Shown piece by piece: positions 1 to 7,297 of a stretch of DNA of 7,538 nt (positions are counted from its first letter, which is position 1; each line of letters starts with the position of its first letter). The stretch is from a virus. Lineage: Duplodnaviria > Heunggongvirae > Uroviricota > Caudoviricetes. The position numbers and the translations under genes were made by a program. The notes beneath the pieces were generated by a model. That model was not told where the DNA came from. It made no database searches and saw only the letters and a program-made list of their open reading frames with translations. Location of the stretch: IMG/VR virus record IMGVR_UViG_2529292734_000008, positions 1 through 7,538 of that record; one strand, written 5' to 3'.

Positions 1-523
1 TTACCCGTTCTGTGCGGATCACTTTCAGGGCGCTGCTCACCAGTTCCAGTTGTTCTGCGCTGACTTCCCCCAGATAATCCAGCTCACCGCCACACTCCGG
101 GCAACAGCTTTCTTCAGGCTCCAGGCGGTATATCTCACGGGGGAGATGTGCCGGTAACGGACGACGATGGCGCGACTGTCGCAACTGGCGGGGAACCAGT
201 GGGTCATCCTCACGCCCACTGTAACGATCGCTTTCCTGCTCGCGTTGTTTCAGCAGGGCTTCAGCCTGTTCAACCTCACGACGCAGTTTTTCAGAACGGG
301 TTCCGAACAGCATCCGGCGCAGTTTTCTATCTGAGCCCGCAGATGCTCTATTTCTCGCTCATCTTCTTCGATCTTTTCTTCGGCACGTGCCAGTTGCAGA
401 GCGCAGGAAGGCCTCCGTCTCTTCAACCAGACTCAGTTGCTGGTCTTCCTGACGGAGGGCTTCAGCCTGCTCAGAGAGCAGCCTTTCCAGCTCAGCGATG
501 CGAATGAGGTATTTCTGACTCAT
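1..523 (-). CDS. tnpC: IS66-family transposase TnpC, N-terminal part (3' end outside window); reading frame appears interrupted
   Basis: ATG at 523-521 gives MSQKYLIRIAELERLLSEQAEALRQEDQQLSLVEETEAFLRSA. A coiled-coil segment LARAEEKIEEDEREIEHLRAQIE then lies in the +1 frame, and the long segment KLRRMLFGTRSEKLRREVEQAEALLKQ...CCPECGGELDYLGEVSAEQLELVSSALKVIRTERV returns to the ATG frame. Read straight from the ATG, the frame hits TGA (plus 359-361) after 54 codons. Confidence 0.75.
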
Positions 524-553
524 GGCCGTTTTTATAATCCGGCCCGGCGTTTT

Positions 554-904
554 TTACAACATTGTCAGTGCGTTAAGGCGGGATGTTTTTGGCTGACGCC
601 AGTCCAGCTTATCGAGGAGCATTGCCAGTTGCGAGCGGGTAATGGATATCTTACCGTCACGCACCGCAGGCCAGATAAACTGACCTTCCTCAAGGCGTTT
701 GGTGAACAGGCACAGACCATCAGCATCAGCCCACAGGATTTTAATCGTGTCTCCCCGTCGGCCACGGAAGATAAACAGGTGACCGGAGAAGGGGTTATCA
801 TCCAGCACATGCTGTATCTGCTCCCCCAGACCGTTGAAGGATTTACGCATATCAGTAACGCCGGCAACGAGCCAGATACGGGTACCTGATGGGAGTGAAA
901 TCAT
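554..904 (-). CDS. tnpB: IS66-family accessory protein TnpB (orf2)
   Basis: 116-aa ORF MISLPSGTRIWLVAGVTDMRKSFNGLGEQIQ...GHLFIFRGRRGDTIKILWADADGLCLFTKRLE, which matches the characteristic IS66 Orf2 sequence as I recall it. It sits between tnpA and tnpC. Confidence 0.85.
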   Translation of the reverse strand: MISLPSGTRIWLVAGVTDMRKSFNGLGEQIQHVLDDNPFSGHLFIFRGRRGDTIKILWADADGLCLFTKRLEEGQFIWPAVRDGKISITRSQLAMLLDKLDWRQPKTSRLNALTML

Positions 905-1338
905 CGTCCCTCCCGGTCAGCTCACGGATCAACACCGTGAGCAGCTCTGGTGAAGGATTTTCCAGCATCATTTTACCGTAATGGAATTCCACATGGCAGG
1001 AAGCTGCACAAGCAACTGATAATGCCTCCGGAGCAGGAGCATCTGTAGCACAGCGCGGGGGGTCGATAAGTTCCACTGGAACCAGAGTCGGAGAGGCCGG
1101 AAAAGATTGTGATACTGTAGGGCCTACAATAGTTGGAGGCATTCTACGAGAAAATACGTCCTTCTCTTTGCCAGAGGCGTAGCCATTTAAAAATCAGGTT
1201 GTTATCAACGCCATGTTCCCGGGCCAGTTGTGCAACATTGGCATTTGGTTTCGAAGCCAGTTCAACCATATGAAGTTTAAATTCATTAGAAAATATCCGG
1301 CGGGTTCCGGAGCGCCAGTCTGTAGGTTTATCCATCAA
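852..1338 (-). CDS. tnpA: IS66-family TnpA (orf1), present as two ORFs in different frames (1338-1144 and 1142-852); possibly frameshifted
   Basis: First ORF MMDKPTDWRSGTRRIFSNEFKLHMVELASKPNANVAQLAREHGVDNNLIFKWLRLWQREGRIFS (HTH-like) stops at TAG 1146-1144. Second ORF starts at ATG 1142 in another frame (MPPTIVGPTV...LLTVLIRELTGRDDDF...). The junction lies at the T4 run on the coding (minus) strand (A-run 1151-1154 on plus). Whether the native gene is continuous is from memory and unverified. Confidence 0.55.
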
Positions 1339-1449
1339 TAGAACTCCGTCTAATTTAGAAGGAGCTCTAATTTAGTCTGCAAGGAGCAGGTGTTACAGAC
1401 GGCATTGGCTTTACGCTTACGATTATTCATACTTCGTTTCTCCTCTTGA

Positions 1450-1839
1450 TCAGGCGGCTGCACCCGCCGTTTTCTCGTACTTACTGATAGTGATCTCGAC
1501 CTTCCCTTCCGGGATAACCGGTCCCCACTCCACCAGCATTCTTTTCACCTGACTGTCGTCTTCCCACACCCCCGCGTGGGTCAGGGCGTCAAACAGCGCC
1601 TTGTTATAGTTGTCCAGATCGCGGATCCTGTTATCCGGAGGAAACAACACGATCTCCACTGAAGCAGGTGCCGACGTTGGTTTCGGCAGACGACGTAACT
1701 GCTCAACTATTGCTGCGCACGCCGCGCTCTGGAATTTTCGCCCCGCCGCGCTTATCAGGCTCTTACCAGCAAACGCCCCTTTGTTGGGGTGTCGCCAGTA
1801 CGTGTTCACGCTGGGCGGAAAAGGCAGGATCAGCTTCAT
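1450..1839 (-). CDS. rusA: RusA-family Holliday junction resolvase (crossover junction endodeoxyribonuclease), lambdoid nin-region type
   Basis: 129-aa ORF with PPSVNTYWR...RIRDLDNYNKALFDALTHAGVWEDDSQV, resembling the RusA signature including the acidic RDLDN motif. Its ATG overlaps the stop of the upstream gene (ATGA). Confidence 0.85.
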   Translation of the reverse strand: MKLILPFPPSVNTYWRHPNKGAFAGKSLISAAGRKFQSAACAAIVEQLRRLPKPTSAPASVEIVLFPPDNRIRDLDNYNKALFDALTHAGVWEDDSQVKRMLVEWGPVIPEGKVEITISKYEKTAGAAA

Positions 1840-2162
1840 ACTTTCAGGCCCCTCTCATGTAACCAGTGGGTTGCACGCAGCCTTGCGTTTTCCTCACCGG
1901 CAAGCAGTGAGCGGATAATCCCGACCGCCTCGCTGTCGTCGTCCTTCACCGCGGTATGAAGCGTGATGCCCCGGGCCACGCCACGCTTTATCGTGATGAC
2001 GCCTTTTTTCTCCAGTGCGCGAAGATGCTCCACCGCTGCATTCACTGAACGGTATCCCAGCATGGTTGCCACCTCCTGATTGGTTGGCGGGAAGCCACGT
2101 TCTTTCTGATAAGAAATCAGCATATCCAGCACCTGCTGCTGGCATTGAGTTAACGTCGTCAT
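1836..2162 (-). CDS. LexA-like DNA-binding protein (LexA N-terminal winged-HTH domain only, no S24 peptidase domain)
   Basis: 108-aa ORF MTTLTQCQQQVLDMLISYQKERGFPPTNQEVATMLGYRSVNAAVEHLRALEKKGVITIKRGVARGITL aligns by eye with E. coli LexA residues 1-70 ([69 protein letters not shown]). The protein ends about 35 residues later with no Ser/Lys protease module. ATGA overlaps at both ends. Confidence 0.75.
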   Translation of the reverse strand: MTTLTQCQQQVLDMLISYQKERGFPPTNQEVATMLGYRSVNAAVEHLRALEKKGVITIKRGVARGITLHTAVKDDDSEAVGIIRSLLAGEENARLRATHWLHERGLKV

Positions 2163-4244: not shown

Positions 4245-4592
4245 GACCGACCTCTATTTCCCTGAATTTACGACGAAACTGTTCGAGCGGACTGAAGCAT
4301 TCATGCTCATAACCTTCGCGGAGGTAGATAACCCGTTGTGTTTCCGGCTCCCAACGAATGACTCTGACGGGCACTCCGTAGTGATCTTTGAACCAGCGGT
4401 TAACTTGTCGCAAAGGACTGTCTCCTTCTGCCGGTTGAAATCACCCACAGCCCACTCTGCAAAGCTGTGGGTTACAATTTCCCTGTCACCTGGTACATTC
4501 ACTGCATAGCAATATTCCACCTTCGCTTTTCCACCCGGAACAGGAAGCGCAATCAGTTGCGAGCGACGGTAGTGTGTTGTTAAACTGTTCAT
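4234..4592 (-). CDS. Hypothetical phage protein, apparently frameshifted (N-terminal part in one frame, protein-like C-terminal part in another)
   Basis: The track ORF 4592-4254 starts [51 protein letters not shown] and then degenerates into a Ser/Thr-rich tail. From 4440 down to TAA 4236-4234 a second frame encodes [68 protein letters not shown]. The start overlaps the upstream gene stop as ATGA. Confidence 0.5.
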
Positions 4593-4957
4593 GCGTTAGT
4601 TTCTCCACAGTCACGACACGCCACGGCGCCCGGAGCTGCACACTCGCGGGCGTCATTACTTTCTGAAATGCAAAAAATTTTGTAGACCAGTGCTGCATGC
4701 TCCTGCAGCTTCGAAATTGAGAGGTAGAGCTCGTCATTAATTGCTGTCTTCTCATGCGGTTCCACTACACCGTCTTCGATTGCTGAACGAATCTGTTTTG
4801 AATAACTGCCGATCTGTTCAATGACTTCCAGCAGACGCTGGTTAATATCGGCGTTGTCCACATCCTCGACGTCAGGAAGAGACACAAAGACGCCATTTGC
4901 AGACTGCGCCACAGCATCAGCAATGAAGTGAGTTCCACCAGCACGTTGCAAAATCAT
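4589..4957 (-). CDS. Hypothetical phage early protein (122 aa, predicted helical)
   Basis: ORF with ATG at 4957. Its stop overlaps the downstream gene start (ATGA at 4592-4589). It lies between the cII-like and replication genes in the same operon. No family recognised. Confidence 0.55.
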
Positions 4958-4978
4958 TGCCCATCCCAGCGGGAAAAT

Positions 4979-5185
4979 CTAATCGCCATCGGCACGAAGG
5001 CGGTTAAATAATGCGTTCTCTGTTACATCCAGCCAGTCAGCAGCTTCAGCGTAACCCCCCGGCAACGCTGCGATAGTTTTTCTGACAGCTTTCACGTACC
5101 ACTCAGGCTGTTTGTCTACTTTCCAGTGATGCTTACCCACGGTTAGCCTCATCGTTCTGTGGTTTCTGTTAATCGATTTATCCAT
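4979..5185 (-). CDS. CII-like / YdaT-like HTH regulatory protein (putative), ending at an amber codon
   Basis: HTH-like segment GYAEAADWLDVTENALFNRLR at the C-terminus, in the position of lambda cII (immediately downstream of cro). The start is uncertain: ATG 5185 overlaps the cro stop, with alternatives at 5197 and 5152; none has a strong SD. The ORF ends at TAG 4981-4979. Confidence 0.45.
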   Translation of the reverse strand: MDKSINRNHRTMRLTVGKHHWKVDKQPEWYVKAVRKTIAALPGGYAEAADWLDVTENALFNRLRADGD

Positions 5186-5378
5186 TAGATTTTTCATAAA
5201 GCTCAGGTTTAAATGGCAACCGTCCGCAAGTTCTATATGCAGCTTCTGCTGCACGTCCTTTTGGAATTAACTGGCCCGGACGGTTTCGCCACTGATAAAC
5301 GGCTTCAGTTGTTATGCCGAAAAAAGCAGCAACTTTCTCAATACTGCCGAAGTAGCTTTCGATATCGTCAGTTGTCAT
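5178..5378 (-). CDS. Cro-like transcriptional regulator (small HTH protein)
   Basis: 66-aa ORF MTTDDIESYFGSIEKVAAFFGITTEAVYQWRNRPGQLIPKGRAAEAAYRTCGRLPF with an HTH motif (VAAFFGITTEAVYQWR). SD GGAGGG lies just upstream of ATG 5378. It is transcribed divergently from the repressor gene. Confidence 0.7.
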   Translation of the reverse strand: MTTDDIESYFGSIEKVAAFFGITTEAVYQWRNRPGQLIPKGRAAEAAYRTCGRLPFKPELYEKSNG

Positions 5379-5388
5379 ACGCCCTCCA

Positions 5389-5455
5389 AACTAAGTTTTA
5401 TTAGATGCTAATTACAAATCTATCTTTGGTCAATAAAAACTAAGATTACTTAGTA
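5389..5455. promoter_or_regulatory. Divergent immunity control region (OR-like): two 14-bp inverted-repeat operator candidates and a PR-like promoter for cro
   Basis: CTAAGTTTTATTAG (5391-5404) and CTAAGATTACTTAG (5440-5453; perfect 5-bp arms CTAAG/CTTAG). On the minus strand, -35 TTGACC (5433-5428), a 17-bp spacer and -10 TAGCAT (5410-5405) precede the cro ATG. The first operator overlaps the -10/+1 region. Confidence 0.55.
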
Positions 5456-5475
5456 ATTAAAGAAATGGTGCTCCT

Positions 5476-5985
5476 ATGGAAACGGTTGGTCAGCGTATAA
5501 AAGCTCTGAGAAGAGTTACCAGAACGTCCCAGAAAGAATTGGGTAAATTTTGTGGAGTAAGCGACGTTGCTGTGGGGTACTGGGAGAAAGACATCAATAC
5601 CCCTGGTGGGGAGGCACTTTCGAAATTAGCGAAGTTCTTCAATACGTCAATAGATTACATTCTTTATGGTGCTGAGTTTGAAGGCAAACTCGTCACAAAC
5701 ATGCGCAGAGTTCCTGTAATATCGTGGGTTCAGGCTGGGCAGTTTACTGAGTGCAGGGCAGCAGAAGTGTTTAGTGAAGTGGACAAGTGGGTAGATACAT
5801 CATTAAAGATTGGTGATAACTCATTTGCATTAGAGGTTAAAGGTGACTCCATGACTAACCCTAATGGCCTCCCAACAATACCAGAAGGCGCAACAGTGAT
5901 TGTAGATCCAGATGCAGAACCTCGTCATGGAAAAATAGTCATCGCTCGACTTGATGGAACAAACGAAGCTACAGTAAAAAATTAG
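5476..5985 (+). CDS. CI-type prophage repressor (XRE HTH + LexA-like S24 peptidase domain), truncated by a frameshift; remaining C-terminal codons continue in another frame to 6101
   Basis: N-terminal HTH (QKELGKFCGVSDVAVGYWEKD) and S24 catalytic Ser motif GDSM. The ORF ends ...ARLDGTNEATVKN*. The adjacent frame encodes KKLVIDGPQKFLVPLNPRYPNIPINGNCLIIGVVKGVQYEL* (to TAA 6099-6101), which matches the lambda CI C-terminus pattern [35 protein letters not shown]. The break is in the A6 run 5976-5981. Confidence 0.85.
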   Translation: METVGQRIKALRRVTRTSQKELGKFCGVSDVAVGYWEKDINTPGGEALSKLAKFFNTSIDYILYGAEFEGKLVTNMRRVPVISWVQAGQFTECRAAEVFSEVDKWVDTSLKIGDNSFALEVKGDSMTNPNGLPTIPEGATVIVDPDAEPRHGKIVIARLDGTNEATVKN

Positions 5986-6115
5986 TCATCGATGGCCCTC
6001 AAAAGTTTTTAGTGCCATTAAATCCTCGGTATCCCAACATCCCTATCAATGGTAATTGCCTTATCATTGGTGTAGTCAAAGGAGTTCAATACGAACTCTA
6101 AGACCTCTCTTCTCT

Positions 6116-6183
6116 AACTAAGGCACCGAACTAAGAAAAGTTTGGTGTTTTCTCTTGCCATAATAACTAAGTTAAGTTAGATT
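6116..6183 (+). promoter_or_regulatory. OL/PL-like element: repeated AACTAAG half-sites, a 14-bp operator-like site and a sigma70-like promoter pointing rightward
   Basis: AACTAAG at 6116-6122, 6129-6135 and 6165-6171. CTAAGTTAAGTTAG at 6167-6180 matches the OR motif. -35 TTGCCA (6155-6160), 17-bp spacer, -10 TAGATT (6178-6183). Confidence 0.45.
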
Positions 6184-6261
6184 TTATGTCAAAGATAACG
6201 AACAGGCAGGACGCCCACGAAGTAGCCGCCTGGGGCATATGAAGTCCAGGATGATTCGTTA

Positions 6262-6290
6262 GCAACAAAAAAGCGCCCTACAGGACGCTT
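6262..6290 (-). terminator. Intrinsic terminator-like hairpin with U-tract, minus-strand sense
   Basis: Minus-strand RNA would read AAGCGUCC-UGUA-GGGCGCUU followed by UUUUUUGUUG (stem 6271-6290, A-run 6267-6272 on plus). On the plus strand the same hairpin has a C-A mismatch and no downstream U-tract. Confidence 0.5.
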
Positions 6291-6291
6291 A

Positions 6292-6303
6292 GCTCTTTAA
6301 CAA
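6292..6303 (+). promoter_or_regulatory. boxA-like antitermination element (12/12 match to the rrn-type boxA core GCTCTTTAACAA)
   Basis: GCTCTTTAACAA at 6292-6303, immediately after a hairpin and about 45 nt upstream of the ATG of the first plus-strand gene downstream of the PL-like promoter. A weak AU-rich hairpin CAAGTAACTGATAACTTG follows at 6319-6336. Confidence 0.45.
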
Positions 6304-6348
6304 TCTGGTCCCCATCAACAAGTAACTGATAACTTGAGGAGATGTGAA

Positions 6349-6555
6349 ATGCACAAAACAGAACCCAAAATCGTCGCGCCTGGCTACACAGATGAGGAAA
6401 TTTATGAGTGGATGACAAAGAAGCTGGCAGCTATAAACCAGCTTCGTGAAGTGCTGTCTTATCGACAGGAAACAATAGACTCCTTAAAAAAACTGGATCA
6501 GGAAATCACGGTTTTATCACAGGATGTTACTTTAGATATTGTGCAGACAAATTAG
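6349..6555 (+). CDS. Hypothetical small protein (68 aa), first gene of the rightward PL-like transcript; AT-rich accessory gene
   Basis: ATG at 6349 preceded by a strong SD GAGGAG (6336-6341). The track ORF begins at an earlier in-frame ATG at 6334. The translation MHKTEPKIVAPGYTDEEIYEWMTKKLAAINQLREVLSYRQETIDSLKKLDQEITVLSQDVTLDIVQTN is predicted helical and acidic. No family recognised. Confidence 0.6.
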   Translation: MHKTEPKIVAPGYTDEEIYEWMTKKLAAINQLREVLSYRQETIDSLKKLDQEITVLSQDVTLDIVQTN

Positions 6556-7028: not shown

Positions 7029-7245
7029 GTCCACCTCGCCTGATGTGGCTAAAAGCAGGCACATAACAGCTAAGTATTTTCAACCAGAGAGAATCCTTAG
7101 CGTTGTGGTGAATGCGGCTCAGCGCACGCGGGTTAAGGTTGAGGCTGACAGTCGACCTTCTGTGGATACCCACCCGCCTGGTGTGCAACCTTCGCCAGGC
7201 ACCGGGAGGCACCCGGCACCACAACTTTATGCTGTGTGTAGTCTT

Positions 7246-7292
7246 GGCGGTACCAGCTTGTACCCTTGCTTCCGGCTGGTACCGTCCTTTTT
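7246..7292 (+). terminator. Rho-independent terminator-like hairpin (10-bp perfect stem CGGTACCAGC/GCTGGTACCG, 17-nt loop, T5 tract)
   Basis: Stem 7248-7257 pairs with 7275-7284, followed by TTTTT at 7288-7292 on the plus strand. Confidence 0.6.
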
Positions 7293-7297
7293 ACAAA

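Follow-up and report, generated by a model that had tools for sequence, protein, structure and literature searches.

A predicted lambdoid prophage right operator that follows the P22/21 plan with different repressor half-sites

The divergent cro-like and cI-like genes of the viral DNA analysed here (the window, a stretch of 7538 bases) are separated by a 97 bp intergenic region (5379-5475) that holds inverted repeats. Are these repeats the operators of a prophage immunity switch, and if so, which protein would bind them and with what specificity? Our best answer, given with good confidence, is that positions 5389-5455 form the right operator (OR) in the immunity region of a lambdoid prophage organised like P22 and 21; repressor binding is what we infer from sequence comparison. 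Because its half-sites and recognition helix differ from those of P22, the region is predicted to have a separate immunity specificity. The features are listed in Table 1.

Table 1. Predicted operators, promoters and genes of the immunity region, in window coordinates
Feature	Position	Strand	Sequence or product	Basis
cro-like gene	5178-5378	minus	66 aa	Pfam P22_Cro, E = 4.4e-11
OR1-equivalent operator	5391-5404		CTAAGTTTTATTAG, 1 mismatch	motif match; PWM 24.3 bits
PR-like promoter	5405-5433	minus	TTGACC (5433-5428)-17-TAGCAT (5410-5405)	consensus scan
Candidate weak OR2	5415-5428		CAAATCTATCTTTG, 3 mismatches	PWM 2.1 bits, rank 7 in window
OR3-equivalent operator	5440-5453		CTAAGATTACTTAG, perfect palindrome	motif match; PWM 22.8 bits
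Putative PRM -10	5441-5446	plus	TAAGAT inside OR3	likeness to annotated P22 PRM
cI-like repressor gene, frameshifted	5476-6101	plus		alignment with vB_EcoS-569R4 and mEp460_4F5
OL2-equivalent operator	6131-6144		CTAAGAAAAGTTTG, 2 mismatches	PWM 14.3 bits
PL-like promoter	6155-6183	plus	TTGCCA (6155-6160)-17-TAGATT (6178-6183)	consensus scan
OL1-equivalent operator	6167-6180		CTAAGTTAAGTTAG, 1 mismatch	motif match; PWM 27.5 bits, top in window

The gene assignments of the first-pass annotation, which had read the sequence without database searches, are borne out by protein homology. The match of the cro-like gene to the P22_Cro family exceeds the gathering score of that family, and a GGAGGG Shine-Dalgarno sequence for the gene (reverse complement) is present at 5383-5388. 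The intact 208 amino acid allele of the cI-like repressor (L001) has HTH_3 (1.2e-9) and Peptidase_S24 (9e-28) Pfam domains and is 49% identical to P22 C2 over its full length; the predicted autocleavage motifs, Ala87-Gly88, Ser125 and Lys168, are unchanged when it is aligned with C2. Among solved structures, its N-terminal domain is best matched by the P22 C2 N-terminal domain and operator complexes 2R1J/3JXB/1ADR (E = 4e-11), and no 434 protein is among the solved-structure matches to this domain at E <= 0.01. The same immunity region is found in the Escherichia phages vB_EcoS-569R4, vB_EcoM-689R6, mEp460_4F5, Kati and LLS, with 95-99.9% identity across cro, OR, cI and OL; over 5100-6350 the window is 99.8% identical to 569R4 and 94.9% identical to mEp460_4F5, and all operator sites are identical in these two phages. 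Beyond the near-identical set, repressor identities among sequenced phages are 90% for LLS, 48.8% for phage 21 cI and 47-48% for the P22-like C2 proteins, and lambda cI is about 34% identical.

The gene downstream of cro is cII-like (Phage_CP76/YmfL). This gene (4589-5254, minus strand) has an in-frame TAG at 4979-4981 that divides it into 91 and 122 amino acid open reading frames; the gene is likewise interrupted in 569R4, E. coli Ecol_AZ146 has it annotated as a frameshifted pseudogene, and in mEp460_4F5 it is a single gene of 194 amino acids. An IS66-family element at the left end of the window (about 360-1340, minus strand) adjoins rusA and includes TnpB_IS66 (554-904, 3e-36) and an HTH_Tnp_1 open reading frame (1144-1338); its TnpC part appears broken or extends past the window start, and Ecol_AZ146 has a KilA-N gene in place of the element. 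The IS66 element and the split cII-like gene are further signs of decay beside the cI frameshift described below.

Two inverted repeats in the divergent region, one of them perfect, and a recurrence of their motif downstream of cI had been reported in the first-pass annotation, and a scan of the window with CTAAGNNNNCTTAG at no more than one mismatch recovers precisely these three sites (OR1, OR3 and OL1). They are the only matches in all 7538 bases against a chance expectation of 0.13, and none of 200 dinucleotide-preserving shuffles reached three; the motif is thus not frequent in this DNA. OR3 is the cI-proximal site, 22 bp ahead of the cI ATG, and its palindrome extends to 16 bp (ACTAAG-ATTA-CTTAGT, 5439-5454). 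OR1, the cro-proximal site, follows the PR -10 directly and would include the PR start expected at about 5398. A position weight matrix (PWM) trained on relatives only, with the window excluded, was used to rank about 7500 window positions, and the four that score highest are 6167, 5391, 5440 and 6131, in that order. The last of these, OL2, scores just over 13.6 bits, the 95% point of the shuffled null maxima, and its centre lies 36 bp upstream of the OL1 centre. The centre of the candidate OR2 is 24 bp from that of OR1 and 25 bp from that of OR3. Two further candidates were dropped: a third OL site at 6119-6132 (CTAAGGCACCGAAC), whose right half is unmatched and whose left half is CCAAA in mEp460_4F5, and a fourth copy of repeat family D1 inside cI (5818-5840), which scores -1.3 bits. 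A whole-window Rfam scan (E <= 1) detected no RNA family in 5100-6400 and hence gives no reason to regard the repeats as RNA elements.

Consensus matches for the putative promoters PR and PL interleave with these operators in the manner of annotated P22. The cro promoter of the first-pass annotation, TTGACC-17-TAGCAT on the minus strand, is recovered by the consensus scan, and the overlap it described between an operator and the -10 does not: the 14 bp core of OR1 ends at 5404 and abuts the hexamer, and 2 bp are shared only if OR1 is drawn as an 18-mer (5389-5406), the P22 operator format. The PR -35 has OR3 on one side and the candidate OR2 (5415-5428) on the other; the PR hexamers are kept in relatives, where the -10 is mostly TAATAT. 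On the left side OL1 sits between the PL -35 and -10 and shares 3 bp with the latter, the segment reading TTGCCA-TAATAA-CTAAGTTAAGTTAG-ATT. The consensus promoter scan returned no PRM, which has almost no -35; a poor -35 is as expected of an activated promoter. By analogy with P22, the PRM -10 may be the TAAGAT within OR3. The relatives examined retain the leading AT of the OR3 centre but not the centres of OR1 and OL1, which fits a promoter role for this dinucleotide.

The arrangement resembles that of P22 in nearly every particular. In the annotated P22 record the OR cores are OR3 (TTAAGTCATCTTAA, perfect and next to c2), OR2 (TAAAGATTCCTTTA) and OR1 (TTAAGTGTTCTTTA), with operator centres spaced 25 and 23 bp apart compared with 25 and 24 bp in the window if the candidate OR2 is counted, and in both it is the perfect palindrome that adjoins the repressor gene. 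The P22 PR has its -35 (TTGACT) between OR3 and OR2 and its -10 abutting OR1, the same plan as in the window with TTGACC, and the P22 PRM -10, TAAGAT, lies inside OR3 (1174-1179 of L084, reverse complement), as does the TAAGAT of the window OR3. The P22 PL reads TTGACC-ATTTAA-TTAAGAAGTCTTAA-ATT, the same construction (-35, 6 bp, operator, ATT) as the window PL, and the distance from OL1 to OL2 is 35 bp there and 36 bp here. The operator format of a 5 bp contacted core, four uncontacted central bp and a second 5 bp core is also shared. The differences are that P22 has OL1-3 and only two OL sites are evident in the window, that the P22 c2 transcript is nearly leaderless and the 22 bp between OR3 and the cI ATG would here give a short leader, and that the replication and early-left genes of P22 are unrelated to those of the window. 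Phage 21 is near-identical to P22 in immunity and has TTAAG-type sites. With lambda the region shares its logic and gene order: divergent cI and cro genes across an operator that is probably tripartite here, OL and PL downstream of cI, an S24 domain predicted to autocleave and a cII-like gene after cro, but the lambda operators are 17 bp long with an unrelated consensus and lambda Cro belongs to a different fold family from P22_Cro. With 434 it shares a short (14 bp) symmetric operator, central bases that are read indirectly and an HTH_3-type N-terminal domain; the 434 half-site and spacing (ACAA-N6-TTGT) differ.

A scan of reference genomes gave a series of homologues in which the repressor is 90 to 63% identical, and about 20 loci from nine genera (Enterobacter, Kosakonia, Kluyvera, Serratia, Rahnella, Yersinia, Rouxiella, Providencia and Proteus) were examined; these loci are not independent of one another, and the conservation statistics overstate the number of independent events. 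Nearly all of them have a pair of CTAAG-N4-CTTAG-type sites (<=2 mismatches) with a spacing of exactly 49 bp, at about -86 and about -37 relative to the repressor ATG; in L016, a metagenome-assembled Serratia contig, the cro-side site alone is present there. The half-sites are kept and the central four bases and surrounding intergenic DNA vary. In 18 loci anchored on the cI-proximal site, each half-site position carries 1.7-1.9 bits of information and each PR hexamer position 1.5-1.6 bits, against about 0.6 bits for flanking positions; OR3 is the most conserved block of the intergenic region. The site after cI is likewise kept in most related loci. Among lambdoid-type relatives it is CTAAGTTAAGTTAG, the OL1 sequence, which is identical in the Enterobacter, Kosakonia, Kluyvera, Rahnella and Serratia relatives in spite of different flanks, and OL2 is represented by CTAAG-N4-GTTTG about 36 bp upstream of it, with AAAA or TTTA as its centre.

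Which protein binds these sites is addressed by two further comparisons. A cro homologue (61-100% identical) is found in the same place in 12 of 18 relatives; the other six (the Rouxiella group and Serratia aquatilis) are without one, all have a cI homologue, and five of them keep the site pair and the sixth the cro-side site. Since the sites are kept where cro is absent, they travel with the repressor and not with Cro. The sites also change when the recognition helix of the repressor changes. The present helix, GVSDV[A/S/T]VGYWEKD, goes with CTAAG/CTTAG sites; Photorhabdus and Xenorhabdus relatives have a P22-like helix (GVSHVAISQWEKE) and three TTAAG-N4-CTTAA sites at -74, -50 and -25, and Proteus and Morganella relatives have the helix GVNRVTVTGWEKG with GTAGG/CCTAC palindromes. 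Such co-variation of helix and operator is the pattern expected of repressor operators. The proposal in the first-pass annotation that the repeats are the binding sites of the repressor is strengthened by their conserved position and half-sites, their persistence without cro and their change with the helix, all of which argue for this assignment.

We note that the loci with repressor and CTAAG operators but without cro (L012, L013, L015, L016 and L026; Rouxiella, uncultured Serratia and Gammaproteobacteria) show other peculiarities. Terminator-like hairpins with T runs, and not OL, appear after the repressor gene in these five; in L013 and L026 the operators directly face a Phage_antitermQ gene (7.6e-48) on the PR side, and a further pair of operators lies 440-570 bp upstream in L016 and L026. 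These cro-less loci may represent a minimal repressor-Q module, such as a defective prophage or a tailocin might carry. Outside the family the only near-match to the motif is TTAAGTATGCTTAG, about 70 bp upstream of repressor genes in three Pseudomonas loci (L068, L074 and L081), which suggests that distant Pseudomonas homologues may use P22-like TTAAG/CTTAG operators.

Other readings of the repeats can be set against these observations. That they are chance palindromes in AT-rich promoter DNA with no operator function draws on the base composition, which is about 73% A+T across the intergenic regions of the relatives and favours AT-rich repeats. This reading is effectively refuted by the shuffles described above, by the absence of any perfect site (and the presence of four with one mismatch) in 209 kb of loci with more distant repressor homologues outside the family, and by the conservation of position and half-sites over nine genera while the flanks diverge. 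It is also very improbable that the palindromes are bound mainly by Cro or another regulator and not by the cI-like repressor. A Cro of the P22_Cro family is a helix-turn-helix protein as well, Cro shares the operators of the repressor in lambda, 434 and P22, and the two binders are inseparable from the window sequence alone; it is the six cro-less relatives, and the change of the sites with the repressor recognition helix across the family, that speak against it.

The number of sites in OR is a closer matter. A bipartite OR, made up of 5391-5404 and 5440-5453, would have a middle segment conserved as PR spacer and -35, no OR1-OR2 cooperativity or PRM activation, and dimers that act independently or by short-range looping. 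The middle site scores below the median null maximum (5.6 bits) and is not significant by its sequence alone; the matches at its position are very poor in Providencia, the Rouxiella group and L026, and the promoter scan found no PRM. Against this, in 13 of 18 loci no other offset between OR1 and OR3 scores as well as that of OR2 (exactly -25), and the site at this position in Rahnella loci has 2 mismatches (CTAATCTTTATTAG); P22 and the Photorhabdus and Xenorhabdus relatives have three sites at 24-25 bp spacing; and with 49 bp (about 4.7 turns) between their centres the two outer sites would not share a face of the helix, which would make direct contact between dimers difficult. We consider a bipartite OR unlikely. 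The preferred reading is that OR is probably tripartite, with 5415-5428 retained as a putative middle site on positional grounds. A variant to which we give slightly less credence, and regard as doubtful, keeps the operators but changes their order of occupancy from that of lambda and P22, OR3 being as strong as OR1 or stronger, and adds a natural specificity switch within the P22 repressor family (position 3 T to C together with N32D, S36G and Q37Y). OR3 could be the stronger because it is the only perfect palindrome and has an all-A/T centre (ATTA), and because E44 and N46, with which the P22 repressor penalises central sequences, are replaced by T42 and G44; its relative affinity might then exceed that of OR3 in P22. 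If this were so, the dominant feature of the switch would be either tight repression of cI by its own product or Cro taking OR3 first.

In P22, repressor contacts are confined to operator positions 2-7 and 12-17, with none at 8-11 (PMC4267663), and this contact pattern fits the conserved half-sites and variable centres found here. The P22 repressor reads positions 8-11 of its 18 bp operators indirectly, in part through E44 and N46 (PMC4267663), the residues that align with T42 and G44 of the window repressor. The P22 operator consensus is ATTTAAGATATCTTAAAT (PMC5175364). The P22 specificity, with this consensus, a TTAAG half-site and the helix SNVAISQWERS, is not the one found in the window, where the strong sites are all CTAAG/CTTAG. 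The P22 half-site is (T)TTAAG compared with (A)CTAAG here, so that positions 2-3 and 16-17 of the 18-mer differ, and the recognition helix is SDVAVGYWEKD, with the changes N32D, S36G and Q37Y. As both half-sites and helix differ from those of P22 and 21, the prophage is predicted to be heteroimmune to these phages. By homology, the predicted target of a repressor dimer is ACTAAG-N4-CTTAGT, and D30, G34 and Y35 are candidates for the residues that face base pair 3.

Under the tripartite reading, dimers of the cI-like repressor would bind symmetric sites made up of two contacted (A)CTAAG half-sites and four uncontacted central bp. Repressor at OR1, probably helped cooperatively by the weak OR2, would block PR and so keep cro and the early genes off, and repressor at OR2 would adjoin a weak maintenance promoter, PRM. 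Excess repressor, or Cro, at OR3 would cover the PRM -10 and turn off cI transcription; Cro is expected to use the same sites as the repressor. Repressor at OL1 and OL2 would likewise block PL. SOS-dependent, RecA-stimulated autocleavage at Ala87-Gly88 would then lift repression and allow prophage induction.

The window copy of cI does not encode an intact repressor. An A run at 5976-5981 is six bases long in the window, and it is seven long in vB_EcoS-569R4 and mEp460_4F5, where, as in the other Escherichia phages with this immunity region, cI is intact at 208 amino acids. The shorter run leads to a stop at 5983-5985, so the protein is truncated after Lys168 with loss of its last 39 residues, and the remainder (5982-6098) is readable in another frame. 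The best matches in complete E. coli genomes differ from the window by this A6/A7 base alone. A pseudogene or a homopolymer sequencing error, which are inseparable by sequence, is more likely than programmed frameshifting or transcriptional slippage, a candidate that was dropped because the relatives examined use one frame with A7. If the deletion is real the window copy probably makes no working repressor, and the operators would matter only in trans or in intact relatives; being intact and the same as in viable phages, they should remain responsive to repressor from another source.

Several other features of the window may bear on immunity or early gene expression. A gene at 1836-2162 (minus strand), between the Dam methylase gene and rusA, encodes a 108 amino acid protein with a LexA DNA-binding domain alone (PF01726, 2.9e-19) and no S24 cleavage domain, and might act on SOS or induction as a LexA mimic that resists cleavage. 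Directly downstream of PL, about 6186-6250 is 90-100% identical in some 1,470 E. coli records, many of which are without this immunity region, and a hairpin at 6271-6290, also called as a minus-strand terminator, precedes an rrn-like boxA (GCTCTTTAACAA, about 6292-6303); 6186-6303 (plus strand) may be a nutL-type antitermination leader. The open reading frame at 6334-6555 has no match to an N-like protein family. The Rfam sRNA STnc100 (RF02076) matches 7072-7295 (plus strand) over its full model length with 43.4 bits (E = 5e-7), slightly below the gathering score of 47.

At least 80% of the immunity region is present in 517 of 5426 complete E. coli genomes. The exact operator strings do not occur in the literature searched, the mEp460 papers checked deal only with prophage typing, an sRNA and dicBF, and operator annotation is absent from the records of phages 569R4, 689R6, mEp460_4F5, Kati and LLS. 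The assignment made here supplies a prophage type that is widespread in E. coli with predicted operator sequences and a predicted immunity specificity. The region would be an ordinary heteroimmune addition to the P22/21 immunity family and reveals no new regulatory principle. Together with P22 (TTAAG) and the Proteus and Morganella relatives (GTAGG) it forms a natural series that bears on how changes in the recognition helix retarget a well-characterised repressor fold.
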